Positions 4,971-38,069 are shown, counted from the first letter of the whole stretch. The stretch is 44,152 bases of DNA, filler included, from Jimgerdemannia flammicorona (GCA_003990765.1; 2 parts of 2 records of this genome joined end to end with filler, not necessarily neighbours in it), one strand, 5' to 3'. Notes: generated from the sequence alone by a model not told the origin. Numbers and translations are program-made.

Positions 4971-13670
<8,700 letters not shown>

Positions 13671-13893
13671 TGTGAGTTGCGAATTATGCAGTGGGTACCG
13701 TCCGGCCAAATAGGTGTGGCTGAAAGCAAGAGCAAGCGAAGTGCTCACTGCATTACGATGAATTCAAATGGTAGTTGTAGGAGTAGAAAGAAGTGAAATA
13801 TGTACTTTTCGGAACTATGATTAAGTGACTGCTTCCAATCACTGACACGTGGTTTTATTCACCACAATCCACATATGGACTAATACCATGTCA

Positions 13894-14165
13894 AAGGGAT
13901 CAAGTCCCCGCGGATTTTTATTGGAAGGGAACCTAGACTATATAGGCTGAAACCCTCTCCCCAAGTGCTACCCCCCCCTGTTCTTAGGCTATAGAGAGAA
14001 TCTGCAGTCCTATCATCTCAGCTATATATATTAAATACTGACTATATTGACTTCTACTATATAGACCAGACTTGTCTATTCACTAGAGCTGAATCATTGA
14101 GACCAATACCAGCAAGAGTACACCTACACATCAGATTCAGTGATGTCAGGACTGAATAATATAAT
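13894..14165 (-). mobile_element. 3' fragment of a second LINE family (family B) next to the GCN2 promoter
   Basis: ggatttttattggaagggaacctagactatataggctgaaaccctctc (13912-13959) is the near reverse complement of 35624-35671, the 3' end of the poly-A-tailed, TSD-flanked element at 34520-35726. The inner boundary is approximate. Confidence 0.7.
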
Positions 14166-14309
14166 CTCTCTGATCCTAAATGTAAGTTAGAGACAAAAGA
14201 AAAACTCTCTAACTAACTAATAAAAAATAGAATAGATTTATAGTGAGTAAGTAAAAAAAACTTATATAAAAAATACCCTCAAAAAAACTTATACATGAGC
14301 TAAAGTCTG

Positions 14310-14460
14310 AAAAGACCCCACTTCTACTCTTTGAGTCTATAGATCTCATATTAGCCCTTAATTCTAATTAAATACTACTAAATGAGAAAGATCCTACTCT
14401 TTAAGTCTATAGATCTCAATTATATTATCATATTAGCTCTTAGTTCTAGTTACATATAGT
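14310..14460. repeat. Two-copy ~70-bp direct repeat
   Basis: ctactcttt(g/a)agtctatagatctca...atattagc(c/t)ctta(a/g)ttcta(a/g)tta occurs at about 14324 and 14394. Confidence 0.6.
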
Positions 14461-14481
14461 CAGAATATCAGTCACTATACC

Positions 14482-17400
14482 TTTTTTTATTTTTATTTTT
14501 ATAGTTACTTAGACTTCTACTTTATTACTATCTATTCTATATTATATATACTAATACAGATATATAGATATACCCCTCACCTAATCCTATATAGAGTCTC
14601 TCTCTCCTCTTCTCTCTCTCTTCTCTCTCTTTTCTTTATTTCTTCAGAAAGTTACCAACTCTCCTGCTATCCTAACTCTCTCTCTACTTTATCTGCAAAT
14701 TTTCTCCATAAGTCTTTTACAAAGTTCTTCTTTAGGTCTCTATTCCTACCATCAACTATTTAAAAGATTCAGTATCAATTATTTCTATCTTGCTATCTAT
14801 ACTCTAAGTATTAACTACTGACTATTTTCAAATATATATAGCTAATATATGGTAAGCCCAACCTAAATAGCTAGAGTTCACTTAATAAATAACTACTCAT
14901 TACTAACCCCTTCCACTAATTTTCTTGGGAGATCATCTTATCTCTTATCTATTACTCACTCTAGTGAGTATGAGTATACTTCTAACTGACCCTCTATAGC
15001 CCTCTAAAAGTCTCTTATAATCTTATACTCTCCTAGTCAATGCTCAGAAGTCTACATCACTCTACTCTCTTACTCAATATTAAGACACTTTTTATACTCT
15101 AAGATACTCTCTTTTACTAAGTATCCTAATTAATAGTTCAGTATCATATTATACTACAAGAGCCTCCACCACACTATCCAGAATTTGGGAGGAATCTATC
15201 TTACTATCTATTTACTCTAAGACCAAATACTATTTTAGTCCCACTCTTTACCAATTCCTACTACTTGCTATATCTCTGACCACAAATCTCTTCTGTGCTC
15301 TTGAAGATACTCTATTCTATCCTTTAAACTAAAATTATCTACTGGCATATCTCTTAACATAAGATAGTTCCATCTCTATATCTGGGGTCTCCAGTCTACC
15401 TCTCTCTCCTCACTCTATTACTAGAGATCAATTCATTAAGCTCTATTAACCACTCTCTACCAAAACTCTCTAAAGTATATCTTCTGGCTTATCTTCAGTA
15501 TTACCAGAGAGAGCAAGTTACCAGACATGTCATAGGGAGAGAATTATATCTCTCACACTTTCTATATAAGGGGCACCCACTCTTGGTCTCTCAACTTACT
15601 AGCTCACTTCAGCTACTATACTCTCAAGCAGTATAGGTACTTAGTAAAGTCCACCAGATCCAGTCCTCTCTAATCCACTGACAGTATCAATATCTTTCAG
15701 CCAATCTGACTCTGCTGCTCTATCCATATTTATATTTTGGTCATCTTTAATAATCTCTTAACTATCTATACTAGGAAGTTCAAATGATATCTCAGATACT
15801 ACAACTTAGGTAGCTAATATACATTCAACACTATTACTCTTTCTGCTAGAGAGATATATCAGCTTCCTTATCTCAGAAGAGTATTTTTCCACTCAATCAG
15901 CCTTTGCTCTCACTATCTTTAAGGCAACAGAGATCTATATACTAAGAAGTAAATCTTCAAGTACTAGACTGTCTCTTCTACTGAGATAATTATTTCAATT
16001 ATATTTCCTCTTACTATCTCTCTATCAAACATCAGTATCTTATACTTATACTAATTAAGCTTAGTATCTAAGTACCTCTTATATTATTTCACTATTTCTT
16101 TTAGTATTGCTATATTCTCTACAGAGCCTAGCTCTATTACTATATTATTAACAAAGACCCCCATCTTCCAGTTTACTCTCAGAATATTTAACCCCCTCTA
16201 TACCTAATCTTATTCAATAAAGACTCCAGAGAGAGAGTATAAAAGATCAGTAATAGTGAGTCTCTCTGTAGCACTCTTCTGCCTAAGAAAAACAACTCTC
16301 TCCTATGTCTATTCATCAGAATAGCTGTCTGACTTCTCTTTAACAGACTAATCAATAATTGTCTAAATCCTAAGAGAACTCCTATATACTTCAGTACTCT
16401 CTTCAGTTACATATACTAGACTCTATTATAGGTCTTCTCTTAGTCTAGAAATACTAGCCAACTATCTACTCTTATAGTATATACTTCTTCAATGATATCA
16501 TATATTTATACTATTCTATCTCTTATCAAATAATCCTTAATAAAACTCCTCTGCTCTGCCCCCAATATCTGCTGAGCCACTTACTGCAACCTAGCCACCA
16601 ATATCTTTATAACCAATTTGTGATCTATATCTAAAAGTATGATCAGCCTCCAGTTTTTCTATTCTTCTCTTCTGCTCTTATTCTTATACAATAGAGCTAT
16701 ATATAATACTTAGATGCTACCTCTCAATCTAAGCTTCTGAGCCAATAACTTCATTATATATCTATGTCATCTCCTCTAAAGTCAACTCTATATCTGTTAT
16801 TCTCTTCCAGAAATCTCAGAGTAAACTATTCTCTCTAGGGACTATCCTAAGACTTATTATCATCAATACCCTACAATCTTCTTCCCTTAGACAGATATAT
16901 CAAGTTCACCTAAGCTCTCTATCAGATCCAAATACCAATTCTTCAGATATTATTCAATATCTAGTGTATCTTCTCTACCCTCCTTCTTACTCCACAATTA
17001 TCTTCACCAAGAGCTCAACTGGTCCAATATTTCTGGAGTTTCAACCACCATCTCTCTTACCTCATTCAATATTCCTTCTTACTGCTATCTCACTCTCCTT
17101 ATCTGAAGCAGTCTTGACAAGAACTTTGTGGGCCTCTCTCTCTTTTTTAAGCCCTACCACTACAGCTAGACTACTATTTCCTTTATCTGTAATTCTTCCT
17201 CCTGTCTCAGCAGTCCTTCAGTTTCTCCACCTCTAGTCAGACCTACTGAATCTTCTAATTCTCCTTCTCTCTATTGTTCAGCAAAATCAGTCTACTTCTC
17301 CAATAGCTTTCCCAACCTCTGGAAAGCCCACCTTAAACATCTCCTCTACTGAGTATCTCTCTTCCTCCCTACCTTCTCTCAGAACCTTTAAGTATCTAAT

Positions 17401-18066
17401 TTTAAATACCACCATCAATCTTCAATCTCCAGTCCCTGTGTCCTCTAGTTAATGATCCTAGAGCTAATATCTACCACCCAAGCATCACACAAAGAGGACT
17501 CTCTCAGCAATAAAGTATTCAGATATCAATATCTAAGCCTCTCCTCACTTTTCTCAAATCTTCTACAACTCAGTAGATTTTAGTGATCAGATCATGGGTA
17601 CCAGACTATCTCTAAAGAACCTCAGATATCTGCTTCTCAGTACTCAGCAGTCAAGATCCAGTCAATCCTCAAACCTAATCCTGCTATCCAATAAGTATGT
17701 ATAGACCCTATAGTCTCTTCACTCAAGATATCTAGTATTCACCAGTGAGCTCAGCCTTTCAATCTCCTCTCAGCCTTCTATATCTCTACTTCTATCAGCC
17801 ATCTCTTCCCTTAATTAGTCCTGTCTAACTACCTATTCCATATTATATTAAAGTCTTTACCCAGATAGTCAATTCTCTCTACTATTATAGTATTTATATC
17901 TTATAGTTCTCTTATCTACTCCATGTGCTCTCTCCTTCTACTGGATAATAATAGAACCCAATAGTTAAGGAGCTCCAGCCTGGCCTCCTCTATACTCCCC
18001 ACACTACTCTATTTCCCCAATATCCAATATCCCCAATATTTCCCTTGCTCTTCTAAATCAGAATAC
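14482..18066 (-). mobile_element. LINE family A copy (endonuclease part, RT, 3' tail), heavily mutated, cut inside the endonuclease domain by the hAT insertion
   Basis: T-rich tail and family A 3' motif at 14482-14530. The reverse complement is colinear with ORF2 of the 38330-44152 copy, e.g. 18066-17950 matches 40553-40680 (G.GILI region) and 16560-16400 matches the QxGF / FLDxxKxYxRV region. Confidence 0.9.
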
Positions 18067-18270
18067 TAGTGCTCCAAACGAATGGAGTTGATCCGGATGA
18101 GATTCGATTCAGATTCATCATGTGATGGATTCGAATCAACTTGGATTGGTCTTGTGATCTGATCCGGATTGATCCATCCGGATTGATCCATCTGGATGAT
18201 CCATCCGGATGATCCATCCAGATGATCCATCCAGATTGACCCATCCAGATTGATCCATTCGGATTGAAAT
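18067..18270. repeat. hAT terminal inverted repeat and subterminal gatccatc(c/t)ggat-type repeats
   Basis: Tandem gatccatccggat(t) units at 18160-18265. gatggattc(g/a)aatcaact is shared with the MITE arms. Confidence 0.8.
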
Positions 18271-18469
18271 CTTTGGTGACGTCACCCTTTCTTTTGTTCA
18301 TTTCGCTCTTGTTTTTTTTTTCTGCCGCACTTTGGTGACATCACTCTTTCCTTTGTTCCCTCTCTTTTCTTTGTTCTTTTTCTTTGTTCTTTCCTGCCAC
18401 ATCACAAGCAAACAAAACAGCAGCCCTAAATTCGTACGTTGGTCCAGTCTACTCATTTTTCACCCTGCA

Positions 18470-20594
18470 ATGATTGTCAAAAGAGGGAGTATTCGAGGTG
18501 AAAACATACTCTCTGCTGACAATGTTAGATTCTTTCTCATATGGACAGCATACAAGCTGCTCATCGAGAGCCAAAGGAGTGATGGCGGTGGCGGTGGTGG
18601 TGGTGATGGCGATGGCGATGGCGGAGATGAGGGAGAATTCCGGCAACAACTCACGGCGGCCCTTCGGACCTCGGAATTCACAGACCTCACAGCTATGTAC
18701 GCGGCAGCCTTTTTGGAGCAGCCGATAGTAGATGTAGGTTGCTCACTCAGCCGCTACTTGTTTACTTGTATTTATTTATTTAAACTTCCCCAGCATGACC
18801 CAATTCACCTCGTACTTTTCTCAGAGTCCACAGCTCTATGGCGAGATCTGCTGACTTTATTCGCAACATCTGGTCAAGATGAAGAAAGGCTGGCGGATGT
18901 TGTGGGGCATGCCTTTGGTGGCTGAGCTGTTGAGTCAATGCATCGCATGGCGGAGGTCTCAAAAAGAACAGAAGCAAGCCTTCGTGAGCAATTCTTGTGC
19001 AACTCGTGCAACTCGTCGGTGTGCAACTCATCAGCATGCAACTCATCGGCATGCAGATCACTTACTCATGCTCTTTTTCTGAAATACCCATCTCCGTATT
19101 TTATTTAATTTCATTTTTATGTGGTCTCCCCCTAAAAAACACCCACACCCGTATGCAACCTGCATGCAACCCGTCCGCATGCAACCCACCCGCCCACACG
19201 CAACCTGCCCACATGCAACCCGCCCACAACCCGCCCGCCTGCATGCAACCCACCCACACGCAACCCGCCTGCAACCCGCCCGCATGCAACCCACCTGCAA
19301 CCCGCCTGCACGCAACCCACCCACACGCAACCCATCCACATACTTATCTCAGTCCCTCAGATTAGGGCTCAGTTCCAGTGGAAAGGAGAGTTCAAAGTTA
19401 TCCGAGTTCAACCATGTCTGGCATCTGATCAAATAGAGAAATTCGAGGGCAAGATATTCAGCATGAGTAGTACCAGCATCGTCATCAAGGCTTGGGGGTC
19501 TACATTTGAATCAGAGCCAATCATACTCGACCAAGGGGTCCATTGGCCAGCAGGAGTAACCAACGACGAAGAGAACTATATCTTTATTAACGAATGTAGA
19601 GAGGTGGTTGTGATGATGGTAAGGAACCTCTATGGCAATGAGCTTCACCACCACATCAATGAGATTTGCGAGGATTGCGTCAAATACCGGGTGGCAGGGA
19701 AGAGGGGGCGAAAAAAGCAAGGAGGGGGGGTTTGGACGGGAATTGGGTATACTGCAACACTGGCGAAGGGTGGGTTCCGAAATCCCCCACACTCGTCTCT
19801 CTTTTTTTTTAACCCCTCCCCAGATAAATTACACTCTTCGCCGACATACTCTTTTTGATACAATTCCAGGGATGCACAAGATTCTGTACCCCTACCGGAA
19901 CTTTAGAAGTGCCGTCGAAGAGCAAACTGCGTGCGAGCATGACACGGCCTGTGTGGCGATGGCAGCTATGATCTGGAGTTCTTTGAGCAGATTGGTAGAG
20001 TGTACAGCAGGCCAGCTTGGTGGTGATCTCGGCGCAGCTGTACGTATGTTCTTGGCACAATTTAGTGTGTCGTATGAGGTGAGGAGCTCCGCTTTTTTAG
20101 GGGGTGCTGCAGCCCGGGGGGTTTCTGTGGCCCAGGGGGTTTTTGCCCCCCGAATGCAAAAAGGACTGACTGGTTGCCGTCCGTTTTGGCAGGTTTCCAA
20201 GCTGGGGCTCCCGGGGCTGGACCAAGGGCAGGTATCCACCAGTACAGCCTAGCAGTATGAGGTCCTGGGCCAAGGGTTCACCCAACCGTACGCTCGCGTC
20301 ACATCAGGATACATCAGGCACAACCTTTCTCTGCCCACACACACAGACAACAACATCACCCCGGTAATATTTTACGTCCCGGAAAGGAAGGGCCCAACCT
20401 GGGAGGACAGTGGCGGAGTCTGGTACGACCTTACCTATGGTTTCGGGGTCCCATTTGTGGCCAACATGGCCATCCTATTCCAACCACATAACCACCATGG
20501 CACCGTCGCCTTCGAGGAGAGCTCGGACACAACAGTCGTCACACTCACAACAGATGACAGGCTTATCAAGGCCTGGGACCAGTGGGTGAAGTAG
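18470..20594 (+). pseudogene. TET/JBP-like 2OG-Fe(II) dioxygenase, 5 exons, ~469 codons, two premature stops
   Basis: Proposed exons 18470-18733, 18825-18983, 19361-19690, 19824-20078, 20193-20594, all joined by phase-0 GT-AG introns. The exon 3 donor GTGGCA is weak; an alternative GTAAGG is at 19619. Exon 5 reads ...RVTSGYIRHNLSLPTHTDNNITPVIFYVPERKGPTWEDSGGVWYDLTYGFGVPFVANMAILFQPHNHHGTVAFEESSDTTVVTLTTDDRLIKAWDQWVK*, with HxD at 20340-20348 and distal His (HGT) at 20496. Stops: TGA 18852, TAG 20250. Confidence 0.75.
19153..19340. repeat. Intronic minisatellite (gcaaccc(g/a)ccc(g/a)ca(t/c), ~11-19-bp units)
   Basis: About a dozen (g/a)caaccc-type cores inside intron 2 of the dioxygenase gene. 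A related gcaactc(g/a)t run lies at 18999-19055. Confidence 0.85.
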
Positions 20595-20794
20595 TTTTTG
20601 TGAGGGTTAGGCAGCCATTTTGTACAGGTTGGGCAGTCTTATGTGGGGGGGTTGGGCCGGGCGCCTCTTATGTAGCACTAGCTTAGCCGTTATACAGGGC
20701 CCTACTGGCCCCTTGGCCCTGCTCTACAGTACTGCCGGTGCGGCGCTGCGGCACAGGGCTGGGGTGCCCATGGGACCCAAACCGGCGACTGCGA

Positions 20795-21172
20795 CTGCCG
20801 GAAATGCCCTCCGACTGCCAGAAGCACCCTCCGACCGCCAGAAGTACCCTCCGCCCCAGACTCCTTGGTGGCTTGGGGCTGCCCCTATGCCGCTGGTGGA
20901 GGGCCACAAATTTTGCACACTCTCTCCGCCTACCCTGCCCACCAACTGACCCCACCCACCAACCTGGGCGCTGACAGCTTGGGGCTGCCCCTTGCTACTG
21001 GCGGAGAGCCACAAATTTTGCGCGCTCCCTCCGCCTCCCCCCCCGACCTGGACACTTGCGGCTTGGGGCTGCCCCTTGCTGCTGGCGGAGGGCCGCAAAT
21101 TTTGTGTGCTCCCTCTGCTGACCTGCCCACCGACCCGCCCACCGACCCAGGTCCTGGCAGCTCGGGGCTGCC
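20795..21172. repeat. GC-rich tandem repeats between the convergent dioxygenase and transposase 3' ends
   Basis: gcttggggctgcccc...ggcggagggcc(a/g)caaatttt units start at 20871, 20977 and 21061, with a partial unit at 21160. Three ~20-bp gcc(a/g)gaa..ccctccga units lie at 20797-20855. Confidence 0.8.
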
Positions 21173-21295
21173 AACCCCGCCCCACTTTGGCTGCAAACTC
21201 TGGGCCAAGTCCTCAGGTTTTTTTCCTTTTTATTAATTTGAAAGGTATTAAATATTCCACAAGGCCAACCAACTTATCCGCGGACCCGTCGAATT

Positions 21296-22026
21296 TTAGC
21301 GGCCCGAGCCCCACCAAGACTTCAGACACATATATGCCCAGATTGTCTCAGCATTCAGCACACACCTCTTTGGGGCAACGAGGTCCACCCCACCTAAGAA
21401 CACCCACTCGATGGGAGTGCTGGAGGCAGGAACCGCCAGGTAGTCCCGAGCCATACCACATAGGCTGGGGAAGTCCATTTGATGCAGCTGCACGCCCAGT
21501 GGGTAGAGTAGAGCAGTGGTTAGATTGGTGGGTTAAATTGGCCCAACGCCTACCAGATAACCCACCTTCCACCAGTTAAGCACCTCCGTGCCCTCCAGCA
21601 GGACCACACGGTCGCTGGTGAGATAAATGGTAAGTTCATCTATTGACGGCAGCTCTTCCACTGACAGCTCCCTCTTCCTCTTTCTGCCGAAGTAAATGTG
21701 GGACAGGAGGGATCTCTCAGCATATTCGTCCGGACTTCGGCCAGAACCTTGCGGCGGTGCATAGTTTTTCCGGTACACTTCAATTATGGCCTGCTTGGTT
21801 CTCTCAATGAAGTGCTGCTCTCAGCTCTGATCTTTATGGTATTGTAGCTTTAAGCATGGGTCCAGCACTGTTCGAAGAAAAGGAGAGTGAGTTTTTTTGG
21901 GGTTTCCTCTGTTTTGGAAGGGGCAATGGCCACACGCCGACATCGACATACCTGTACTGATTGAGTATACGGCGGTATCTGTTTGGGTGTAGTATTTTCT
22001 AAGCTTGCTTAGAGCAACCACCACGG
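21296..22026 (-). pseudogene. hAT transposase C-terminal region including the dimerization domain, intron-containing, mutated
   Basis: ALSKLRKYY..[intron]..VLDPCLKL...*...IDELTIYL....EVLNWWK [intron] ..FPSLCGMARDYLAVPASSTPIEWVFLGG..LVAPKRCVL..ETIWAYMCLKSW is a classic Dimer_Tnp_hAT pattern (WW, P.L...A..L..PASS...ERxFS). In-frame TGA at 21821-21823. Confidence 0.92.
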
Positions 22027-22126
22027 NNNNNNNNNNNNNNNNNNNNNNNNNNNNNNNNNNNNNNNNNNNNTTAATTAATTAANNNNNNNNNNNNNNNNNN
22101 NNNNNNNNNNNNNNNNNNNNNNNNNN
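22027..22126. other. Assembly gap / artificial contig linker
   Basis: 44 N + ttaattaattaa (stops in all six frames) + 44 N = 100 nt. Confidence 0.95.
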
Positions 22127-23518
22127 ATAGCCTTGTACTTGTTATACTGGTCTATAATCTGCTTCCCAACATCCTTGTGCTCCAGCAACTTGCTGTTCAA
22201 TGTTTCGATATCCCATCCTGATAACTTGCCTTTGGAGTTCTGGGTATAAGCCATTGAGGAAGGTAGTTGAGGCTAGGGCCAGTTGGACTGCTGGTTGAAG
22301 GTTCGCCTTGATCATTTGAGCTTGAATCCGATGGTAGAAACTCTTGAGAGTTTCATTGGCAGCTTGGCTCATATAGGTCAAAGCCTCCTGTGCTTCTTGT
22401 TGGTGCTTGAATCCATTGAACTGGGCATGGAGCCAGGCTTTGTGAATCATGTACCTTACTACATGGTTCCTATCAGGTTGAAGGCCATCATTCAGTTCCT
22501 CTGTATGGATTTCTCCTCTGGCTTGCTTGGCTTGATTATACCTCTGTAGGGCTGGTCCTCTCAGAAGTGACTCCACAATTCTGAGTTTTCTTGCAGCATC
22601 CCATTGTTTGGCAGCTGCTTGAACTTCAATTTCTCCAAAGAATTTCTCGATATCTTCATTGTCTGCACCATGGAACTTCTGAAGGTAGCTCATGTCTGGC
22701 TCGTCTTCACTATCTGAGTATTGTTCAGAGGTGGGGGATCTGGCAGATCCTCAGGGTGATGGGAAAGGTGGTGGTGCTAGTACTTGATGAACTAGTGGTG
22801 CTGGCAGAGGGTGGTGTCTTGGTGAGGGTGAGGGTAATCTGACTCTTCTAATTAATGCTGGGGTTGAAGTCCTGGGTAGTGGTGGAGATCTTCTGATTGA
22901 CTGGTGATAGTGGCGAGGTGTGAGTGACCAGGGTACTGAAGTTCGAGCAACTGATGGTGGGAGTGGACTGATATAACTGATAGTGAGTTCGTCTGCCCCT
23001 TGCTGTTGTGAAGTAGTGAGGTCTTGTTTGTTTTATTGTGGGTTTGTATCACTGTCTGGATAATAGTATAGGTTGAATTCATCCCTTTGATGGTCTGATC
23101 CCCAATCGTTGTCTTGCTCTGGTTGATATGGATGATAGTCCTCTTCTCCTTCTGATGTTTCAAAGTATACCAGGTCTAGTGGAGTGACTCGAGTAACAAC
23201 AGTAGTTATGTAGTTACTTCTGTCTGAGTTCTTCCTATGGATAAGGGTCTGATACTCCTCGGGGATATCCTCTTCTTCTTCTTGGCCTAAGTCTTGGATC
23301 TGAAGGGGCGGTTCTGGTTGTCCTCTGAGTCGTCTCCTTTCTCTTGAAGTCAAACCATAATCTGGGTCACTTCTTTCTTCTGATTCGATTTTCTGGCTAC
23401 TGGTGTTGAATAGGGTCCTGGCTACTGTTCTGACAAGGGTGTGGGCTTTCTTTTCTGCTGAGGAGGGCTGTTGCTGCCTCTGGTTTAGTTGCTGACTTGG
23501 TCCTGCTAAGTTCTCCAC
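22127..23518 (-). pseudogene. Ty3/Gypsy gag with long low-complexity N-terminal extension
   Basis: ORFs 23033-23518 and 22142-22693 are in one frame, split by TAA/TGA stops explicable as CAA/CGA transitions. Capsid-like LQKFHGADNEDIEKFF...LLRGPALQRY...QAANETLKSFYHRI...FLNGLYPELQRQV. Confidence 0.85.
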
Positions 23519-24183
23519 TGTAGATAGCTGGGTTCTTGAGCCAAATGGTCAAGTCTTTTGAAAACTTTCCCAGTTGAGCCCCCAAAATGTGGCATTGGGT
23601 TTGTATCCCTAATTGCTTCTGACATGGCTCAATGTGCCACTTGGTGAAGCACTCAATGGATAACTGAGTGTGTTTGCGATGGTTATGGGTTGTTGGTCAC
23701 GTGATCGGGTCATTCGAAATATGTGATAATAGTGGGCGATCGTTCAACAATGGCTCAATTGTTTAGTGGATAAGAGCGGCAGTTATGCTGGCTAAGTTTC
23801 CTGGCGGCAATTAACTTGGCGGCAAACTTGGCAATGGTCTTGACTTTAAATGGTTCATGGTGCAGTAGGTTGGGAAAATGGAGGTTGACGGCTCACTCGT
23901 CCATCTTGACTTGTTAACTTAAAAGGTTCCTGGCAGTCATTCGGGTCTTTGGCAGCAGGTCAGTCTTTGGCAGTCTAGTATCCTTTGGCTGGGTATCCTT
24001 GGGTTTCTGGGTCTTGAATCTCGAATGGCAGTCAAATGGGCAGTCCGAATGGTGGCAGTCAGGTAATATTTTCTTTCTGTGGCAAGAGAAAATTCTTTAA
24101 CTCAAACTTCTGAGCGATCCATTGCTCTAGGTTGTTATCTTGTTCTCAGAATTTATCTGGTCTCTTAGAGGCAGTGGTTTCTT

Positions 24184-24632
24184 TGTAATCCTTTTTACTT
24201 TTAAACACAAACTGACTGAGGTTTATTCACTCTAGGAATATGGGTTATTTATACAAGTTTGCTAGCTATGGACACGGCTAAGGTATACTATGTTGTGGTG
24301 AACATTCGCTATGCTATTGGCTTGCATGATGCGAGGTGCAGGCTATTGTTTACTACAGATTGGGTTGTAGGGGATAGCAATGCTGGATTCGGACTTGCTG
24401 ACAAAATGCTGAAAACAGTGGCACTGGATAGCAACGCTGGAAACAGTTGTGCTGGGTAACAATGCTGGAAATGGACTTGCTGACTAAATGCTGAAAACAG
24501 TGGCACTGGATAGCAATGCTGGAAACAGTTGTGCTGAGTAGCAATGCTGGATTCGGACTTACTGACAAAACGCTGAAAATGGTGGCACTGGATAGCAATG
24601 CTGGAAATGGACTTGCTGACTAAATGCTGACA
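24184..24632 (-). mobile_element. Candidate LTR upstream of the minus-strand gag
   Basis: Minus strand reads TGTCA...TTACA and contains tandem repeats, then TATAAATA (about 24246-24253) and AATAAA (24222-24227). The core is homologous to 31557-31625. The upstream boundary is uncertain and there is no clear PPT. Confidence 0.5.
24377..24630. repeat. 82-bp tandem repeat built of ~27-bp aatgctg(g/a)a sub-units, about 3 copies
   Basis: Units start at 24377, 24459 and 24541. Confidence 0.9.
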
Positions 24633-24671
24633 TGAAGGCTGCACAATTCTCATGACTGACGGGTGGTACTT

Positions 24672-25771
24672 CTAGAGGAAATAGTACCCTTCGTCCACGG
24701 CGGGCAAATCTTGCTGGGTTAAGATTTCTTCTTCATCATACCTCTCCTCAAAAGGGGGAAGTGCTGGCCAAGAGGTGAGGGGGTAGAAAAGTGGCCAGTC
24801 ATCTTCAACAACATTCTCCAACCTTTGAACAGCTTGAATGTGGACAGAGGACTGGTAGACTCTCTGTTGCTCCTCTTCTTCTTCTGAAGACTCATCAGTT
24901 TCAGTGTCAGAGGGGGTTTCTTCAGGGGCAGGGTCTTGGAGTTCTTGGGCTTCCTCTTCAAAGACAGAGACCTCTTGGACTTCTTCTTGATTCAGTTCCC
25001 AAATGATGAGATGTGAATTGTGGTGGCAGGGTGGTGGGTGGTTGGGGTAGCTCCAACGGGTGCTTCTATGGTAATGGGTGGTCCTTCAAATATCTCCATA
25101 AGACTCATTAGGTGACCTTGATGGTTGTCTCAGAGTGGGGTGGTGTGGAAACCTGGCTGAGTAGGTTCAGTTTGTTGGCTTCCTACGGCGATACAGTTGC
25201 TGCCAATAGCATTGGCTACTTCGGATTCTATCCAGTCAGCATCTTCAGTTGATAGGTGGGAGAGGCTACCAGCTGTTACTCCTTGCAAGTGTGCTATAGC
25301 CCAGAGAATATGGCAGAAGATTTGGTGGACATGGAGGGCTCTCTTGATTAGCCGGCTGGTGGTTAACATTTCGGTAATGAGGTCTTCCTGGTCATCTTCT
25401 TGAGTCTCATTGTGAAGGTGGTGTCCGATTTCATAGTCATGCCAGAGGGTCATTCGTTTGGTAGTATCTTTGAGCTGTTGGGTCATTATATACCAGTAGT
25501 TGATGAAGTGTCCAAGGTCCTCGGTGTAGAAGTTCAAGTGTTCGGAAGTATCTGGGCACCAGATGGCCTTCTTGATAGCTTCAAAGATCAGGGTCTTTGG
25601 GTGAGGCAAAGGGGTAGAGCGGTGGGAGGTCTGGTTGGATCGGCGAATGGGAGGCATTGTGTGGTGGGTACTTGGTTCTTTGGTACCAGTCCCTGAGGTG
25701 GAGTATGATTCCTTAAATAACGTGGTCTTCATTTTGGCTTGGATCATCTTGTCTTCTTTTGGGATGATCAC
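24672..25771 (-). pseudogene. Uncharacterised TE-associated ORF(s): 213-aa helical-looking ORF followed by an acidic ORF
   Basis: ORF 25130-25771, then in another frame ...IWELNQEEVQEVSVFEEEAQELQDPAPEETPSDTETDESSEEEEEQQR...PAVDEGYYFL* ending at 24672. CpG-depleted like the TEs. No recognised domain. Confidence 0.45.
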
Positions 25772-26288
25772 CTAATGGGTCAGGCTGTCTATTTGATTGT
25801 CATGCCATTATGTCATCTGATCTTAGCAGTCACCAGTACTCCATTGTCAATTATGTATATCATACTATATAGCAAGTATATGAACAGAAATGTATAGTAA
25901 TATAAACTAAAAGATTATAAACTTAAACTATATTAAATAATATAAACTCAAACAACTATGAATACAAACTAGTAAATATAAACTGAAGTTTTTTTCCTAA
26001 TAATTAATATCAGGTTTGGGTATTTCTTCAACTATTCTTTTAGGTTGAAATAATGTGGTAAAGGCTTTGCTAGATCCAGTAGTTTATAATTCTTATTATT
26101 AAATTATCTTTACTTATATATAGAGAACTTAATAGTAGAAATGTAATTTTTTTGATTGATATAATATCTCTTATAGTTCATGAAATTCTTGGCTTTGTAG
26201 TAATAATATTAGAGAGAAGATTCAGAAAATATTCACTTGTAGCTTTGATAGATTCTCTTATATATTTCTCATAGAAGTAGCTGCTAAT

Positions 26289-29135
26289 GGAGATTTAGAG
26301 GAGGAGTTATATAAGGTGGGTCTTACAGAGATTGGAAAGGCTGCTGGAGAGGTGGGCTGGATCTTTGGATAGTAGTAAGGAAGGGAACTAAAGGACTCAA
26401 TAGACCCAGCAGGAGGTAGAAGAACTGAAGGGGCTGCTTAGGTAAGAGAAAAAACTACAGATAAAGAGAATAGTAGTACAGTTGCAGTGACAGGACCTAG
26501 AGAAGGAGGAGTGACCTATGAAGTACCTGTCAAGGCTGCTTCAGATAAAAAGGATAAGATAGCAGTAAGAAGGAGTATTGAATGAGGCAGGTGATATAGT
26601 GGTCAGGATATCAGAGATTTTGGACCTACTGTAGTCTCATTAGGGGCAGTTGTGGAGTAAAGAGGAGGGAGATAAAGATACACTAGACATTGAATGATGG
26701 CTAGAGAATTGGCCCCCAGACCCAGCAGTAGGCTAAGGTAAACTTAGAGTCTCTGTACAGGGAGAGGAGGTCTGTTAGATTTTGGTAACAATAAATATGT
26801 AAATAGCCTCAGGGGAAGATAGATTATCTTGGGATTTTTAGAAGTAGATAACCAGTGTGGAGGTTATACTGAAGGAGATAACATAAATGTATAATGAGAT
26901 GATTGGCTCAGAGACCTGGATTGGGGGTTAGTACTTGGGACTTATAGCTCTATTGTATAAGAATAAGGAGAGGAGAGAGGATTGGAAGAACTAGAGGCTA
27001 ATCATACTTCTGAATATGAATTGCAAGTTGGTAACAAAGATTTTGGTGGCCAGGTTGCAAGGGGTAGCTCAGTAGGTATTAGAGGCAGAGCAGCAGAGCT
27101 TTGTCAGAGATCATTTGATATGAGATAGAATAGCTTAGGTCCATGGTATCATTGAAAGAGCTCATACTGCTGAGATTAATAGTCAACTAGTCTTTCTGGA
27201 CCAAGAGAAGACTTATGATAGAGTCTGGCATATATGGCTGAAGGGAGTGTTAAAGTAAATAGAGATCCTCTCAGGGTTTAGGAAATTATTAATTAGTTTA
27301 TTAGAGGGGAGTCAGATAGCTATTATGGTGAATAGACATAGAGGGGAGTCATTTCCTCTAAGCAGAGGAGTACTATAGGGAGATCTACTGTTGTCAATGA
27401 GCCCTTGTTAGATAGGATATGGCACAGAATATGGGGATTGAATATTCTAGAAGTAAACTGAAATATGGGGGCCTTTGCTGATAATATGGTGGTCAGGCTG
27501 AGCTCTATAGAAGATATGGCAGTACTGAAGAGTACTATGGAATGGTATGAGAGATACTCAGGTGCTAAGCTCAATTGGCACAAGTGTAAGACTCTGGTCT
27601 TAGGTAAAGGAATAGTAAGAGGAGATATGTATGATTGAGATAGTTGTTCCAGTAGAAGAAGCAGTCCAGTATCTGGAGATTTATTTTTTAGTATATAGTT
27701 CCATACTGCCTCAAGATTGGTAGAAACAGTAGCTGTTCAAATGGGGGAATACTCTCTTAAGGTAGGGTAGCTGATATATATCTCTGATAAGAAGAGTGAT
27801 AGTGTTGAATATATATTGGCTGCCTAAGCTATAGTATTTGAGATATTACTTAAACTTCTCAGTATAGATGGTCAAGAGGCTGTTGAAGATAACTAGGTCA
27901 TGAATATGTATAGGATGGTAGAGTCAAATAGGCTGGGAGGTATTGATATTGTCAGTAGACAGAGAAGAGCTGGGTCTGGTAGATTTTATCAAGTGCCTAC
28001 ACTGCTTGAGGGTATAGTAGCTGAAGCCAGCAAGCAAATTGAGGGGTTGAGAGTAGATGTCTCTTATGCAGAGAGTGTGGGAGGTTTGGTTCTCTCTCTG
28101 GGACATAACTGGTGACCTGCTTTCTCTGATAGTACTAGAGGGGAGTAAGAAGATATGCTATAGGGGATTCTAGTGGGAAGTGATTAATAGTGCTCATCAA
28201 ATTAGACTCAGATAGTAGAGTGATAAGAGGGAGGAAGAATAGAGACCCCAGATATAAAGATAGGATCATCTGCTGCTAAAGATTACACTGGTAGATGAAT
28301 TTTATTTAGAGAATTGTATGGAATATCTATGAGAACATAGAAGAGATATGTGGCCTGAGACCTAGCAGGGGGTTGGAATTAGCAAAGAGTGGGACTAGAA
28401 CAGCATTTGGCCTTGAAGTAAGCAGGTGGTAAGGTGGCTTTCCCCCAAGTTCTGAGTGATATAGTGGAGGCTATTGTGATAGAATATAATACTGAATTAC
28501 TGATCAGAACATTTGGACTTTGGAGTGTGAGGAGTGTCTTAATGTTAGGCAGAAGGGTGGTATGGTGCAGACCTCTGAGCATTGGCTGGGGAAGTACAAG
28601 GTTTTAGGAGACTTTTGGAGAACAATCAAGGATTAGCTGGGGTTGTAATCTTTTGAGGGGTTGGAGAGTGGGTGATCTCTGGAGGAGGCTAGTGGGAGGG
28701 GTTGGAGATGAGTAGTTGATCTTTGGGTAGGCTCTGACTATTTGGGTTGGGCTTACTAGATATTGGTTTTATATATTTGAGAATGGTCAGTATTTGTACT
28801 TGGGATACAAGTTGTAAGGTAGGAGTAGTTATTGCTAGATATTCTAAATGGTTGGTGGTAAGGATAGAGACCTAGAAGAGGAATCGGTAGGAGACTTATA
28901 GAATATATTTGCAGGAAGAATCAGGAGAGGATTGGGGTTACTGGGGGGTTAGTGACTCTCTGAGAAGGCAGAGAGGGGGGGGGGGGGGGGAGTTTTATAT
29001 GAGGAAATTATATGTAGGATTAGGTGAAGAGTACATTTGTACCTTTGTATTAATATAATATAGAATAGATAGTAATAAAGTAGGAGTCCAAGTAACTATA
29101 AAAAAATAAAAATAAAAATAAAAAAATAAAAATAA
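26289..29135 (+). mobile_element. 5'-truncated LINE family A copy (RT region to poly-A)
   Basis: Degenerate QQSFV, FLDQEKTYDRV, GAFADNMVV and SGAKLNWHKC motifs. Tail taataaagtaggagtccaagtaactata-(A)n. 15-bp TSD gaagtagctgctaat (26274-26288) vs aaagtaactactgat (29136-29150), differing only by transitions. Confidence 0.9.
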
Positions 29136-29912
29136 AAAGTAACTACTGATTAATCTTTTTAATTATCTTCTAACTTCTTAAGTATGGGTAACTTCTTTAT
29201 TAAGTATGATAAATCTGTTGAATACTTCTTGAATAGTTTCATTATTGAGTCTATCAAATTACTCTTGGTTGATATGAGTCTTAGTCTATTTAGTAATAAT
29301 TCTATTAGCTTCTTCAGCTTAGTTCTGAAGAGTAGTCAGAGTAAAGGTGTTCTTGTATTATTATCAATAATGTTGATTGAGTTATCTATATTTATATATA
29401 GCTTATAGGTGAGATTAACTTCTACTGCTCCTAAATTGTAATAAAACTATATGTTGATAGAATTAATACTTTACAGATAATCAATATGACTATTAGTCCT
29501 AAGTCTGAATTCTTATAAAGAAGTGCTGAGTTCCAATTATCTGTTATAGTGATATAGTTCAGAGTATTGTTTTTATATTCTTATACTGAAAAAGATACTA
29601 TACTTATATCTCAAGTTAATTAGACTCAGAATTGTTAATAAGTCAGATCTAAGAGTTCTTTAATAAGAATACTACTTTATTCTTATAGTTAAAGAAAGTA
29701 GAGCTGAGATTATAATATACTCAATATAGAGAGTTTTATATAAGTTTTGGACTATAATTAAATATAGTATACTAGATATATCTATATATAGTTATACTCT
29801 ATTTGATATCAATAACTGCTAGTTAGAAATTCTATAGGAATTTTCATAGGAATTTCTATTAAAAATTCTATCAGAATTTCTAATAACTTATAGATATGTA
29901 ATAATTTATTAT

Positions 29913-31153
29913 ATCACTATTCTGACTGACCATTTGGCTCTTACCTGGTTGTTGACCACAAGCAAACTCAAAGGAATATTTACCAGATAAATCATAAAAC
30001 TATAAGCCTATGATATAACCATTATATACTACTCAGAAAGAACCCATATTAATATAGATATACTTTCACAGATACTCTGAAGTACTTATAATCTGTAAAA
30101 CCAAAATGAATAAAGAACTTTACTATGGAATCATCATCCATCTAGAATAGTAAAAGATATCCCAATATCTAGAAGAAAGAATATAAATAATTATCAACAG
30201 AACTTAGAAATAATTCAAAATAAATAGAGAAATATTTAAGAAAGAAAAACTATTAGTTATATCAGAATATAAGAAGAAATAAGCAATGAGGTCAGTATAT
30301 AAACTTAATTATCTAGGAGGAACAAATACTTATAATAAAGTAAAAATAATAATATAGTGGTCTAGAATAGAGGAAGATATTAGATAATTTGTCAAGATCT
30401 GTGATAAATATTAAACAGAAGCAAGATCAATAAAACTAGACACCAGAATTAGCAGATATAGAATTAGTACTATTTATCTATATTGCAATAGATGTAATTG
30501 GTCCACTACTCTAGATAATAACTAGTAACTAATATATTATTATTATTATAGATCTTTTTATGAAGTAGATAGAAGCTAGACCCCTCAAAGAAGCTAATAT
30601 ATAGTTAATTGCTAATTTATTTTACAGAGAAATCATCTATCAATTTAAAATACTAAAGTAAGTAATAACAGAAAAAGAAACAGAATTTATAAACCAGCTC
30701 TTTAAAGTTCTTTACAAGAAGTATAAAATTCAGCACATTCAAACTATAGTCTATTATTTATAGAGAAATAGATAGACAGAAGAGACTAATAAGATTCTCA
30801 AGAATATTATTACTAAGATTTGCAATAACTATAAAAATTGGAACTACTATCTACTAATAGTATTATTTTCTCTCTGAGATATATGATTACAAAGTATCTA
30901 TTTTATCCTTCAAAAATTACTATTTAGAGAAGAAAGTTCTAAAGAAACTCTATTATCTAATAGAGATATAGTATGGAAATATATAGATACTAAGATATAG
31001 AAATTGCACCAAATAAGAAAGAAGACTGAATATTATATAATTAAATTATAAGTATTGTAATAGAATAATGCTAAAAAGATCTATAAGCCCTTAAAGATTA
31101 TCAAGATAAGAGACAAAGTCCTAATATATCAGAATATAGTAAAAGCTTCATAG
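29913..31153 (+). pseudogene. Ty3/Gypsy RNase H C-terminus and integrase, hypermutated fragment
   Basis: ITILTDHLALTWLL..KGIFTR*IIKL*AYDITIIY...HINIDILS (RNase H end). *WSRIEEDIR*FVKICDKY (HHCC remnant). IAIDVIGPL, IDLFMK*IEARPL, and remnants of TDxGTEF and YHPQxNGQTERTN. Confidence 0.9.
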
Positions 31154-31466
31154 TATAATGAGTGAATAATATAGTATAGCTAGATAATATAAATACTTAA
31201 TATAGTATAGTTATATATATCTAGTTATCTATATATACTACTACTTATAATAAATCAGATTTGTTGATATATATTCTAAGAATACACCTATATCTATCAG
31301 ATATATCTATACTTATTAGATATATCTATACTCACCAGATATATCTAGTCACCCTCTTTTTAAAATGTATTACTACATATTCTATAGTTAGCTATATAGT
31401 AACCAGATAATAACTATAACTATCATAACATAGTAGGCATATAATTAGGGAAATATAGTGGATTTC

Positions 31467-31790
31467 TATAACTCTTCTTAACTTCTCAGAGTTATAAGTA
31501 GTATCTATCTGATCTCATTATCAGACTATTAGGGTGAGGCTTAAACTCTTTTGATCTGAGGTTTATTCACTCTAAATACTGGAGATATTTATATAAGTTT
31601 GCTAGCTATAAGGTGGCTAAGTTATGACTATGTTTCCTATAAGTCATTCTTCATAAGTATTAATCCTTAATATTTGTTAAATCTTTAATATCTACAAATA
31701 CTTTAATATCTATGAATACTTTAACATCTATAAATACTTTAATATCTATAAATATTTTAACATTTATTAAAGTTTTTACATTTGTTATTT
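31467..31790 (-). mobile_element. Second LTR-like segment with 18-bp tandem repeats
   Basis: tgaggtttattcactcta...tttatataagtttgctagctat...ggctaag (31557-31621) is homologous to 24217-24282. About 5 ctttaatatctataaata-like units at 31665-31770. Confidence 0.5.
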
Positions 31791-34519
31791 ATAAGGCTAT
31801 ATAGAAATTAGATTTATATACTATGATTAAATATCTATTTCTTATTTTGATTTCATACTATATATTACACTATATAAAATATCCTAGAGATAAAAGTAAA
31901 TAAATCTCAGTCTGAAAAGTTCAAAAGCAAAAGCCAATTATCTGGTATACTTAGAAAAAATATCTAATAAAAGTAACTTGATCTAGAAAAGATTATAATA
32001 CTTAGAAGATATACCTACCAATGAGTCACTACTAAGAAGTTGTGAGCTTACCTTCTACTCTGGTCTACTTTCTAATACAAATAAGAGAAGTCCACCACTC
32101 AAAGCCAGTCTAGTATAAGATATATGTATCTTCATAGTAAATCTATTTGTATAAATGAAGTAGTTTTTGATATAACTTTAAGAAGTCTGCTATATTTTGA
32201 TATATGTACTTGTTATATAAAGTCAGAAGTTTACCAATTTAGAAAAAATCTACACCAACTGAGTTATCTGTCAAATCTGCTGTCTATTAAGAAAAAGTTA
32301 ATATTTTTAAATAATTTTCTAATTTAGAAAGAATCTATATTATTCATCAAATTGCCAACTTATCTTCTATTAAGAAATACTACTAAATTTACTATACTAT
32401 ATCAAATTATCTACATAACATAGAGATTATCATATAGAAATCACATATATAAGAAACTGCCCATACTCTATAAAGATTACTACTATATTTAAGAAAATAT
32501 CCTAATAAGAAAATTACCAAATTATCTATTATATGAATAAGAAAACTTACTTAAGAATCTAGTATTATATTTATACTACTAAATACCAACAAGGATACCA
32601 GAAATCATTAAATATTTTGTTACTTTTTGACAAAGTAACTAGAGACTCAAGTCAAATTATATAATAGTCTCAAACTTATAATTGAGCTGGTATATTATAT
32701 TTGGAGATTCAACTGAGAAGATTTTCTTTAAATCTATATAACTTTTTAGCTCACAGAAATCCAATAGTCAAACTGAATATATTTAATATATATAATATCA
32801 ATTTCTACTACTATAGAAGAATGAGTTATTAATAGTATTTAAACAGAAAGAGAAGTAATTATCTCAAGACTTACTAGTTATCTAGTATTAGAAACATCTT
32901 AACTAAAAGCTAGTATAGTACAGAATTTTCAACTAATATCAACAGACTTAACATCAGGAGATCTAATCCAGTCAGATCAATCAGATAATACAGATAGCTC
33001 TATCAGAAACTTTAATGAGCTTATATAAGAATTAAAAAACCTCATCATATAATCCCAGTTTTCCTTAGAAGCCCCATCAGTCTCCCCTATCAAACCACTA
33101 CTAGAACTAGTAACCATAAAATCAGAAGAATCAGGAAGAGCCTCTTTAAGGATATTCAGATCTTCTGTATCTCACTTAAGATCAATAACACTATCTTTAG
33201 GATACCCAAGTATCTTAAGCTCTAGTAATAACTTAGAAAGCAAATCAGAACCAGAATCAAAACCAGAATTAGAACCAGAAGACAGTGATGACAAAATGGC
33301 CATCTCAATATCAATCTTTATAAGATACTCAGAAAAAGACCTAAGAGAATTCATCAATAGAATCAAAGGAATCGTAGCTCTAAAGAATCTCTCTGTCTAG
33401 AGAAAGATTGTTATCTTTAAAGCTCAACTCAGAGAACTAGTAAAGGGAATTTTCAACTAAGTAGCAAGAGATGCATATTCAGACCTTAGAGTAGTTATCT
33501 ATATAGCACTATTCTGAGAAGAAGAATATGGAGCTATAACTTACTGACTTATTAAAAAATATGTAAAAAATGAACTCTACTATAAGATTTATGAATCTAT
33601 TATAAGAATGAAGGTAAATCTCAGATAATTACCAAGAGCATTCTTCCTTAGAATCTAGAAAAGAATGTATATAGCTAGATTCAATACTACTAATCAAGAC
33701 ATCATAGGTTTAATAATTTTCATAAATGAGATCTCTCCAAATATTGCTCAGTATATCTGTATTCTAGACATCAGAAGATCCAAAGAATAAGTAGATATAG
33801 CTTAAGGATTTTTTGATATTAGATAAGAAACTACCTGGAGTAATTATAATAAGAAAGATAATAAGAAAGACCTCTTGATCAAAACCCTACAAAGATTCCT
33901 CTAAGAATGTAGAAAACCAGAGAAAGGAAAGCCAGCTAAGGAGTAGAAGAAAGAGAAAAATGAAATCCAAGACCTTAACTCTAAGTTAGACTGATTGGTT
34001 GAACAAATAAAAAAACTCACTATATATAAAAATTGGAGCTACCCACAGAACAACAGAGAGTATATACTATGAAGAAATCAAGACTACTCACCTAGAGATA
34101 ATAGAAGCTATCAGTTATAAGAAGAAAGAAGATATCTAGTACAAGAAGACTAAAGCTCACTCTGTTAAAGATTTTGAAGAAGAAAGTAACTACAGAGACT
34201 ATAGTAATCTAGACCTATATCCAACCAAGGTTATTACTAGAAAAATAGTCTACTTAGCTAAGAAAAGAAAAAGATTAGTAGGAAGGCTATCTAGAAACAC
34301 TACAGAAGAATTATTCAAGAAGAAGATAAATAAGATAAAGAGGAGTAAGTTGAAATATCTCCCAGGTCTCTCTCATCTTTTGTCTCTGAAATAAATAAAC
34401 TATTACCAGAAGAAAGAAATGAAGCAAGAAGAATAAGAGCCTATTGTTTCAATGCTCAGAAAGAAGTATACTCCAAAGATCATACCTAGAGATATATATT
34501 TACAATGAAGCCTGGTAAA

Positions 34520-35726
34520 CACCTCTTTCTCCACTACCTTACTGGTTACAATAGTTTGGTAGGCAACCTTCTGAGTCCACTTTCCATAACTATTACTCCC
34601 TCTACCTCAGGTTGGTTTGCTGTACCTATTGCAGAGTAGTGAGAGGGAGGCAATGGTGATGAGTTGCTCCTTTATTAGTGTTCAATCAGTATCTTCTTCA
34701 CTTTTTTGTAGTTTCTGATACCTTTGGCTACATCTGGAGTATATCTATTTTAGTGTGGCACCTTCTTTCTTTTGCCATCACCAATAAGGTGCTACCTTGG
34801 TGTACTATAGATTACATAGGGAGTCAGCCAACCTTGGGCATTAAGTACCTAGTATAGATTACCTGTAAGTCCTCAGTACCTGTAGTGGGGCCCTCTGGCT
34901 TCAGCAAGCTTTCTGGTGAGCATAGTTCTAGTATAAGTGACTGTTTTTCAGATGTTGTTGGGATGAGAGAGGAGATAGCCATCATAGATAGGAGGAAGAG
35001 CAATAATGGTGGACCAGTAGGGTACTGGACTGGAGGCAGTTATCAGGGCTAGGGCAGGTGCTACTTCAGTGGGGCCTTTTGATTGGTGTGGAGTGGTTAG
35101 GTGATAGGTGTCACTCTCAGCTTCTTTCGGTGATTTGGCAAGTTAGGTCCTGGTCATTGGGGGGGGTTGGGGGGCCTGAGGCTACCCATTTCAGACATCT
35201 TGGCTACACTCAACTGGAACTGGGAGCTGATATGGCAATGTGATCAAGGCCCACAGGCTTGAGTAGTAGAGTATTGGGGGTCTTCCTCCCATCTCATGTG
35301 TAAGTCCTTTACTCATCTCGACTGGAAGAACTAGGCTCTATCCACCATGATGTACTTTGATGAGGATTTTTCTTTATCTATCATTCTCTTTGGGGTGGCA
35401 GGAACTATTCTATTCAGCTTGAGTATGGCCTTATATATACATTGGAGTCTCAGGCATGTGCTTTTGGTCATTGGCATATAGCTGAGTTCCCCCTGGTGGT
35501 AGGAAGAGCATGGTGTACAGAATGAGGTATAGGTCAATATAGGCCCTGCTATATCTAGCATGGTTGAGCTGCTGGACAATAGCTAGTCTAAGTTAATAAG
35601 AGAGTAGTGCTTGATGGATGGTGAGAGAGGGTTTTGGTCTATATAGTCTAGGTTCCCTTCTAATAAAAATCTGTGGAACTTTGAGTCTGTTAAAAAAAAA
35701 AAAATAAAAAAAAAATAAAAAAATAA
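34520..35726 (+). mobile_element. 5'-truncated non-LTR element (LINE family B 3' end)
   Basis: AATAAA at 35662, A-rich tail from 35692. 16-bp TSD aatgaagcctggtaaa (34504-34519) vs aataaagtctggtaaa (35727-35742). Homologous copy at 13894-14165. Confidence 0.8.
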
Positions 35727-37859: not shown

Positions 37860-38069
37860 GATAGATACATAGAAGATGCCATCAACTTTATTGAAGCCCT
37901 AGATTCTATAGAAAAAAAAGAAATCAATTACCTCCCTACTGGAGCCAGATAGCTATATCTCAATCTTAGAGTCTGAGAGCTCATATCTACTGAAGCCTCA
38001 GTCTAAGGACAACCCAAACTCAGCAAAGATATTGTCTAGTATATCTTACTATATCTCAAAGCTAAACCC

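Follow-up and report, generated by a model that had tools for sequence, protein, structure and literature searches.

The interval 18067-22026 of the Jimgerdemannia flammicorona sequence analysed here (GCA_003990765.1; two parts of two records joined end to end with filler, 44,152 nucleotides in all, hereafter the window) is a multi-copy repeat that starts sharply at a terminal inverted repeat (TIR) and continues unbroken through a gene, a spacer and a transposase gene. On balance, we favour reading it as a dead member of a multi-copy hAT family with a probable PE-like cargo gene of the TET/JBP type, the interval being the left 4 kb of the autonomous element. The order of its parts would be the left TIR, subterminal repeats, a four-exon plus-strand gene, a 0.7-kb repeat-rich spacer and, convergent with the gene, the 3′ end of a minus-strand transposase gene; the remainder of the autonomous hAT element was probably lost in an assembly gap. 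The copy is evidently dead: each of the two genes is broken by a single nonsense codon, and many transitions set the copy apart from its sisters.

The left TIR, TAGTGCTCCAAACGA, recognised as hAT-type in a first-pass annotation of this DNA, stands as an exact match at 18067-18081 on the plus strand. When the window was scanned with this pattern at up to three mismatches, seven occurrences were found where 1.27 were expected, and none of 100 shuffles attained seven. The TIR is followed at 18082-18280 (plus strand) by subterminal repeats, comprising GATTCA/GATTCG motifs and tandem copies of the 13-nt unit GATCCATCCGGAT (repeat family D15, palindromic arms I1-I5), which likely serve as transposase binding sites. 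The same TIR family delimits a non-autonomous miniature inverted-repeat transposable element (MITE) at 37345-37859. It is 515 bp long, with inverted TIRs at 37345 (two mismatches) and 37859 (no mismatches) and inner inverted arms of 183 nt that are 90% complementary. Its flanks, AATAGATA and GATAGATA, are equal at seven of eight positions and differ by one transition; they fit an 8-bp target duplication, and a 7-bp reading misfits. An 8-bp target duplication is typical of hAT elements. Across the TIR, the end at 18067 aligns with either end of the MITE, and all three have subterminal motifs of the GATTCA type; GATTCA/GATTTGA motifs akin to the 18082-18280 repeats occur at the MITE ends and also at the end of a metagenome contig, L001, which bears a relative of the cargo gene. 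The right end of the element lies past the gap and its own target duplication beyond view: the TIR is seen, and the 8-bp flanks are known from the MITE only. The TIR, the MITE’s 8-bp duplication and the dimerisation domain of the transposase all fit the hAT superfamily, and the assignment of the vehicle to it, proposed at the outset, is supported.

The transposase gene is represented at 21296-22026 on the minus strand by its 3′ part, with exon pieces at 21296-21487, 21566-21867 and from 21952 to at least 22026. The introns between them, read from the sequence, measure 78 and 84 nt and are both of the GT..AG type. At 21296-21532 (minus strand), the Pfam profile Dimer_Tnp_hAT (PF05699) was matched at E 9.4e-10, with 38.6 bits against a cut-off of 21.4 and profile positions 26-83 of 84 covered, which bears out the earlier claim of a convergent hAT transposase C-terminus. 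An in-frame TGA interrupts the gene at 21821-21823. The element is cut at 22027-22126 by the assembly gap, which reads as N runs around the linker TTAATTAATTAA; the DDE/RNase-H-like catalytic core and the BED-type finger region of the transposase fall in or beyond it. The sequence past the gap is unrelated and on the minus strand, and five open reading frames there (22142-22750, 23033-23548, 24312-24671, 24675-25085 and 25130-25771) had 0 Pfam matches. The window holds no second copy of the element and nothing else that resembles it. Between the convergent genes, a G+C-rich spacer extends over 20595-21295, with tandem repeats of about 84 nt at 20883-21132 (repeat families D9 and D11).

As a test of the element being one unit, contigs of four public sequencing runs were aligned to 17600-22026 at a likeness of at least 85%. 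In run X1, a soil metagenome, 1370 contig pieces lie on this interval: 180 at 99% or above, 440 at 95-99%, 595 at 90-95% and 155 below 90%. Their summed depth, which adds up all contigs and organisms in the metagenome and is not a copy number, jumps from 0.35 in the bin 17896-18043 to 192.9 in the TIR bin (18044-18191). From the TIR bin onward, it stays at 76-400 in 25 of 26 bins, through gene, spacer and transposase, the exception (14.9) being the bin of the intron-1 repeats. The five spacer bins (20560-21299) have depths of 136, 75.8, 117.6, 150.9 and 126.8, and the transposase bins 185-296. The contig joints listed fall only in or beside repeat tracts, namely the tandem repeats of the spacer, the intron-1 repeats and a T-rich tract at 18299-18442. 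Among the best-supported loose contig ends (180 further ones exist), none lies near 20600-21300. A single 613-nt contig of run X3 covers 21154-21761, and the three runs other than X1, from two further studies, hold parts of the interval at lower depth. None of the listed runs that hold the sequence is an RNA run. In the window sequence, no inverted repeat or other junction brackets the gene alone, in agreement with the earlier remark that no insertion junction is visible there. A GGC/GAT-rich tract at 18575-18625 draws many unrelated metagenome contigs, whose loose ends flank it on either side in each of the four runs, and the depth over this tract is uninformative on the element.

A competing explanation is that two units stand next to each other: the gene and the left TIR would form an element of their own (non-autonomous, or one that captured the gene), or the gene would be a host gene adjoining an insertion, and the transposase would belong to another hAT copy that ends in 20600-21296. 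Within this interval, 72 bp past the stop of the gene, lies a weak TIR-like 15-mer, TAGTGCTACATAAGA, at 20666-20680 (minus strand), in the orientation expected of a right end. However, it has three mismatches, shares only TAGTGCT with the true ends, lacks subterminal repeats, and its flank GCTTAGCC differs from CAGAATAC; we took it as a chance occurrence and not as an internal right TIR. The contig L001 lends the two-unit explanation some support, since its dioxygenase-like gene and a hAT-like end with GATTTGA repeats are 1.7 kb apart, no transposase occurs in 3.7 kb, and the gene faces the end there, while in the window it points away from the end. The same contig also speaks for the single mobile unit: read from inside, its terminal stretch agrees with the end of the MITE in 15 of 19 positions, and the style of the subterminal motifs is alike; beyond A-rich tracts, its DNA has nothing in common with that of the element.

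Several further points tell against a single unit. Among the contig pieces listed (1589 more exist), none bridges 20598-20701, and the depth of run X2 is 0 in the bin 20560-20707. The depths of X1 are sums, as stated above, and the window does not show the right TIR or the catalytic part of the transposase, which lie in or beyond the gap. On the other hand, the X1 depth is maintained over all five spacer bins with no loose end there among the best-supported ones, and a nested pair amplified jointly would still move as one unit. Two separate units appear improbable to us, and 18067-22026 is quite probably one mobile unit.

The cargo gene lies in eukaryotic DNA with spliceosomal introns. Its model comprises four plus-strand exons (18909-18983, 19361-19769, 19870-20078 and 20193-20594) with GT..AG introns throughout, is supported by the homologous products P0004 and P0022 and by L001, and predicts a protein of about 370 residues. 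All three intron positions and phases are common to the window gene and L001. Exon 1 (MPLVAELLSQCIAWRRSQKEQKQAF), which is too short for a BLAST match, is collinear by eye with the N-terminus of P0004 and ends at a GT donor at 18984; further in-frame ATG codons lie upstream, at 18879 and 18897. Intron 1 contains tandem CA-rich repeats of 11-30 nt at 19148-19353 (plus strand; repeat family D2), of which contigs skip or repeat units. Exon 2 encodes the N-terminal half with the NYIFI..EVVV and GIGYT blocks and ends in phase 1, as placed by alignment A4 and by tblastn with P0004 (19547-19771; 35.5% over 76 amino acids; joint E with the following match 2.2e-33). That following match, 19869-20513, covers exon 3, which encodes a helical region (MHKILYPYRNF...) and has its intron position and phase as in L001. 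Exon 4 encodes H-T-D and the distal H-G-T; it contains a premature TAG at 20250-20252 and the normal stop TAG at 20592-20594. The product P0001 is 84% identical to the frame of exon 4 (E 6.3e-60) and has W where the window has the premature TAG; tblastn places it at 20208-20597 (80.8% over 130 amino acids, E 2.1e-63).

The spliced plus-strand gene of the first-pass annotation is thus retained in outline, with four exons in place of five: its first exon (18470-18737) and the frame of its next exon found no homologue support. Of the premature stops that it reported in both genes, the TAG at 20250-20252 and the TGA at 21821-21823 persist, while a second stop in the cargo gene, placed in its second exon, is an artefact of a wrong frame, because that frame lacks homologue support.

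The family of the cargo protein is tiny. When 1.84 billion representative proteins were scanned by phmmer with the last open frame (20253-20591), only six reached E ≤0.001. Two are short products from metagenomes, P0001 (84% identical) and P0002 (55%), and P0003 represents 28 clustered products, of which nine bear the name “hypothetical protein”. P0005 is a metagenome fragment of 98 amino acids, and P0006, a protein of 1768 amino acids, matches residues 50-66 only. P0004 is a continuous product of 374 amino acids on a 1702-nt contig and is collinear with the window gene across all three junctions. Since it is uninterrupted there, its contig has no introns, and the simplest reading is that the contig derives from a spliced transcript. 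A search with P0004 added P0022, the profile A2 returned P0004 alone, and a word-index search of exon 2 against longer proteins gave 0 matches. Scanning metagenomes with the family profile A3 yielded two contigs, L001 and L002, of 34% G+C, both with an intron-bearing gene. In the near-identical L002, the dioxygenase gene is interrupted by an in-frame stop at about 1880. L001 carries, past the dioxygenase-like gene and interior to the hAT-like end, two more open frames of 93 and 94 amino acids (2320-2942, plus strand), which match no Pfam family and have nothing alike in the window.

These relatives bear on the suggestion that the open frames are not a gene and that HxD...H arose by chance in a G+C-rich repeat. 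The suggestion draws on the fact that no relative is annotated or named, the cluster names being “hypothetical protein” only. It is confronted with six database relatives at identities down to 37%, one of them a continuous product of 374 amino acids, with intron positions kept in L001 and with the tblastn E values of 2.2e-33 and 2.1e-63. We regard it as most improbable.

The motifs of the cargo protein point to a dioxygenase. The last exon reads HNLSLPTHTD...GG.WYDLTYGFGV...F.P...HGT...DDRL..AW, much as had been noticed at the outset, and alignment A4 is conserved at P-(T/V)-H-x-D, followed by GG.(F/W)Y, YG(F/V)(G/R)V, N....F and H-G-(T/S). In six of the seven A4 rows that span both sites (P0004, P0022, L001, the window, P0001 and P0002), H-x-D (as H-T-D or H-V-D) is combined with the distal H-G-T/S. 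The pair of H-x-D and distal His recurs in P0007 and P0012. In P0003 and P0005, N takes the place of D, and the latter sequence stops short of the distal His; the two probably represent decayed copies. We also ran a language-model feature search of a protein atlas with P0004, whose recognition value of 2142 is below the line of 2300, under which high scores are weak evidence. Its first rank went to a Basidiomycota cluster (0.96) with 209 of 256 features in common and PF20515 on 15% of its members. Two more fungal clusters without a name scored 0.96 and 0.95, one of them mostly Basidiomycota and the other Mucoromycota (few members on record), and at rank 11 stood a phage cluster (0.91) with Tet_JBP (PF12851) in 16% of its members.

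The initial description of the cargo as a TET/JBP-like dioxygenase is sustained indirectly, by HxD...H, by the atlas clusters and by blocks that resemble the PE type by eye; matches to profile libraries or to sequences of the PDB do not add to it. The evidence on the opposite side is as follows. At E ≤10, P0004, P0001, P0002 and P0003 matched no Pfam family at all, and hence neither Tet_JBP (PF12851) nor 2OG-FeII_Oxy_6 (PF20515) nor any other 2-oxoglutarate (2OG) dioxygenase family, and at E ≤1 the exons of the window gene had no Pfam match. NCBIfam and PHROGs gave nothing relevant to the family. Searches of PDB sequences with exon 4 alone and with profiles A1 and A4 returned chance matches only (E 0.6-1). 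AlphaFold2 models from alignments of 13 and 11 rows had a mean pLDDT (predicted local distance difference test) of 38.2 and 38.6, a confidence too low to show a double-stranded beta-helix. The fold of the cargo protein is the main uncertainty of the reading. Taking both sides together, we find it likely that the cargo belongs to the wider TET/JBP-like group.

By eye, the nearest described relatives of the cargo would be the PE-type TET/JBP-like dioxygenases of other fungal DNA transposons (Kojima 2025, PMC12730594). We compared the family by eye with two sequences of Table S1 of that paper, Helitron-1_MoIm and Zisupton-19_AB. The order of blocks is alike: NYI..D..T.E(I/V)V, SAG, (I/L)P..D, N.(F/Y)..R...H.(D/E), GG.F...(D)YG and N...V(W/F).P...HGT(S/T). 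In the NYI..D..T.EIV block, 9 of 16 positions are identical, and between DYG and HGTT the family and Helitron-1_MoIm have 10 identities in 25 gapless positions. The SAG block is shared, an Arg stands about 20 residues after the distal His in both, and both the cargo family and the PE type escape ordinary profile searches. According to the same paper, HHpred relates the PE type to CMD1 at E 1.4 and to NgTET at E 19, and PE-type models of the AlphaFold DB resemble CMD1, NgTET and CcTET at E <1e-5.

The link to the PE type is weakened by the way it was obtained, as a by-eye reading and not as a computed alignment, and by two differences at the blocks themselves. The cargo family has HxD, while HxE is the PE hallmark according to PMC12730594. 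In the G..G(S/W)R block after SAG/GW, each of the four family sequences that extend over it has T for the R of PE and PU (by eye). The carrier differs as well, since PMC12730594 assigns the PE type to five transposon lineages, none of them hAT. The strings YGFGV, AGYT, HGTTV, HGSTV, GIGYT and PTHTD are absent from the supplement text of that paper, in which long cells are partial.

The most likely function would be oxidation of 5-methylcytosine (5mC) by the cargo enzyme, on the DNA of the element itself or nearby. It is also conceivable, though unlikely in our estimation, that the cargo has HxD...H and is perhaps of the 2OG/Fe(II) type without oxidising 5mC: it could act on another base (thymine or N6-methyladenine, 6mA), add a group as CMD1 does, have a protein or RNA target, or be inert. 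The unmatched TET/JBP profiles and the replaced Arg are consistent with such a divergence. So are the leads obtained from the atlas with the last exon alone, which are weak (0.89) and go to generic 2OG-FeII_Oxy_3 clusters, and PMC12730594 commits itself to no chemistry for the PU and PE types. On the other hand, the best atlas clusters are fungal and tied to PF20515 and Tet_JBP rather than to generic families. The likeness of blocks is to the transposon-borne PE type, whose models resemble CMD1, NgTET and CcTET as cited above, and the surrounding genome has CpG-centred repeat decay, a setting where a 5mC oxidase would pay.

This decay is seen in the ratio of observed to expected CpG, which is 0.00 in the repeat block 14000-18066, 0.19 in 22127-29000, 0.04 in 29000-38000 and 0.12 in 38000-44000, against 1.11 in a GCN2-like host gene at about 5500-13800. 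The hAT element itself has 0.60, with an excess of TG (1.18) and CA (1.33); its higher CpG content could simply reflect youth. Relative to its sisters in X1, the window copy shows 75 A>G, 78 C>T, 81 G>A and 93 T>C differences and about 15 transversions. At the best-supported transition sites where the window copy has T or A, 14 of 32 are at CpG. Among the C-to-T changes at CpG, T precedes C in only one of nine, and TCG-specific hypermutation of the type reported for rusts (PMC12730594) was rejected on this count. The decay is of the kind that CpG methylation with subsequent deamination leaves behind, and resembles neither Neurospora-type repeat-induced point mutation at CpA nor the TCG bias of rusts. 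The cytosine-directed mutation of transposable elements that had been claimed for this genome is hereby sharpened to CpG.

Oxidation of 5mC would weaken the silencing by CpG methylation and the subsequent C-to-T decay. Silencing escape is the role proposed for all TET+ transposons in PMC12730594, where it is itself a proposal, and we infer a similar counter-defence role for the cargo described here. Since the repeats decay at CpG and the host gene does not, the locus offers a setting where the pay-off of the cargo may be measured.

The host gene and the other repeats of the window deserve a brief description. The former is of the GCN2 (eIF2-alpha kinase) type and extends over 5500-13800 on the minus strand, with RWD at 12974-13763, two kinase regions at 9181-12369 and HGTP_anticodon2 at 6069-6509; the kinase open frames of the window are parts of this single GCN2-like gene, and reading them as the mark of a kinase-rich early-diverging fungus was rejected. 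The hAT element and the gap are flanked by inverted repeat copies at 14482-17216 and 26431-29118, which are 72-77% complementary. One copy has a GC skew of about -0.4 to -0.5 and the other of +0.4 to +0.5, at a CpG observed/expected of 0.00-0.19, and this skew exceeds the expectation from symmetric CpG decay. A reverse-transcriptase fragment (RVT_1, E 2.7e-9) lies at 42252-42530 on the plus strand, in a G-rich, C-poor repeat block with a CpG observed/expected of 0.12. A TIR-like inverted pair at 2019 and 4278 (TAGTGCTTAAAATGA and TAGTGCTCTAAACAA), 2.26 kb apart, encloses a protein-kinase fragment at 2140-2493 (Pfam E 1.1e-4); it has neither matching flanks nor subterminal likeness, and may be an old non-autonomous copy or a chance occurrence.

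The combination of a hAT vehicle with a TET/JBP-like gene, which the first-pass annotation did not know from any description, is already in print: a paper of December 2025 describes hAT elements that carry TET genes (PMC12730594). The TET+ hAT7 elements of that paper form twenty families in six Puccinia species and have 7-bp duplications and PU-type enzymes. They resemble the present element in belonging to the hAT superfamily, in having a TET/JBP-like gene beside the transposase, in residing in a fungus-like genome with CpG-decaying repeats and in the proposed escape from silencing. The two differ in their ends, since the termini of hAT7 begin with CAACGGTGGGCC and its duplication is 7 bp, whereas the family described here starts with TAGTGCTCC and has an 8-bp duplication in the MITE; the MITE flanks fit eight and not seven positions, and the termini are not of the CAACGGTGG type. 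In the three hAT7 families whose arrangement is given in section 4.1, the TET gene is upstream of the transposase in the same orientation, and the enzyme is of the PU type, whereas the genes of the present element are convergent and the enzyme is PE-like.

The present element is also similar to the KDZ (Kyakuja/Dileera/Zisupton) and Plavaka transposons with AG-type TET/JBP genes, in which transposase and dioxygenase likewise travel together (PMC12730594, PMC13297926). Those belong to different transposase superfamilies, and the AG type matches Tet_JBP-type profiles and a solved structure, whereas the cargo family described here matches neither. CcTET of Coprinopsis, an AG-type enzyme, is a proven 5mC and 6mA oxidase (PMC12730594, PMC13297926). 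A 2026 review cites transposon-borne TET/JBP, in its available text, for Basidiomycota and Pezizomycetes only (PMC13297926). We found no description of this hAT cargo family in the literature covered, which consisted of sources other than subscription journals. Relative to hAT7, the present element stands apart in its terminus, the 8-bp duplication of its MITE, the convergent order and the enzyme type.

A bolder interpretation, which we hold to be doubtful, is that the cargo represents a fourth type of transposon-borne TET/JBP-like enzyme: PE-like, with HxD and without the N-terminal Arg of G..G.R, carried by a canonical 8-bp hAT element in a fungal lineage outside the rusts, mushrooms and Pezizomycetes. 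Such an enzyme would perhaps have an altered co-substrate or chemistry, as in CMD1, and would perhaps measurably shield the element from CpG decay, in view of the ratio of 0.60 in the element and 0.00-0.19 in all other repeat blocks of the window.

The idea that transposons carry their own eraser of methylation marks is recent and at the stage of a proposal, and in the available text of the sources cited no PU- or PE-type cargo enzyme has been assayed to date. The element opens no new category; the case would add one more independent capture, in another hAT lineage and with the genes arranged differently. The dioxygenase is too divergent for standard annotation, which suggests that such cargo is under-counted. 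The case would also add a genomic setting in which CpG decay affects the repeats and not the host gene, and in which the pay-off of the cargo can be measured.

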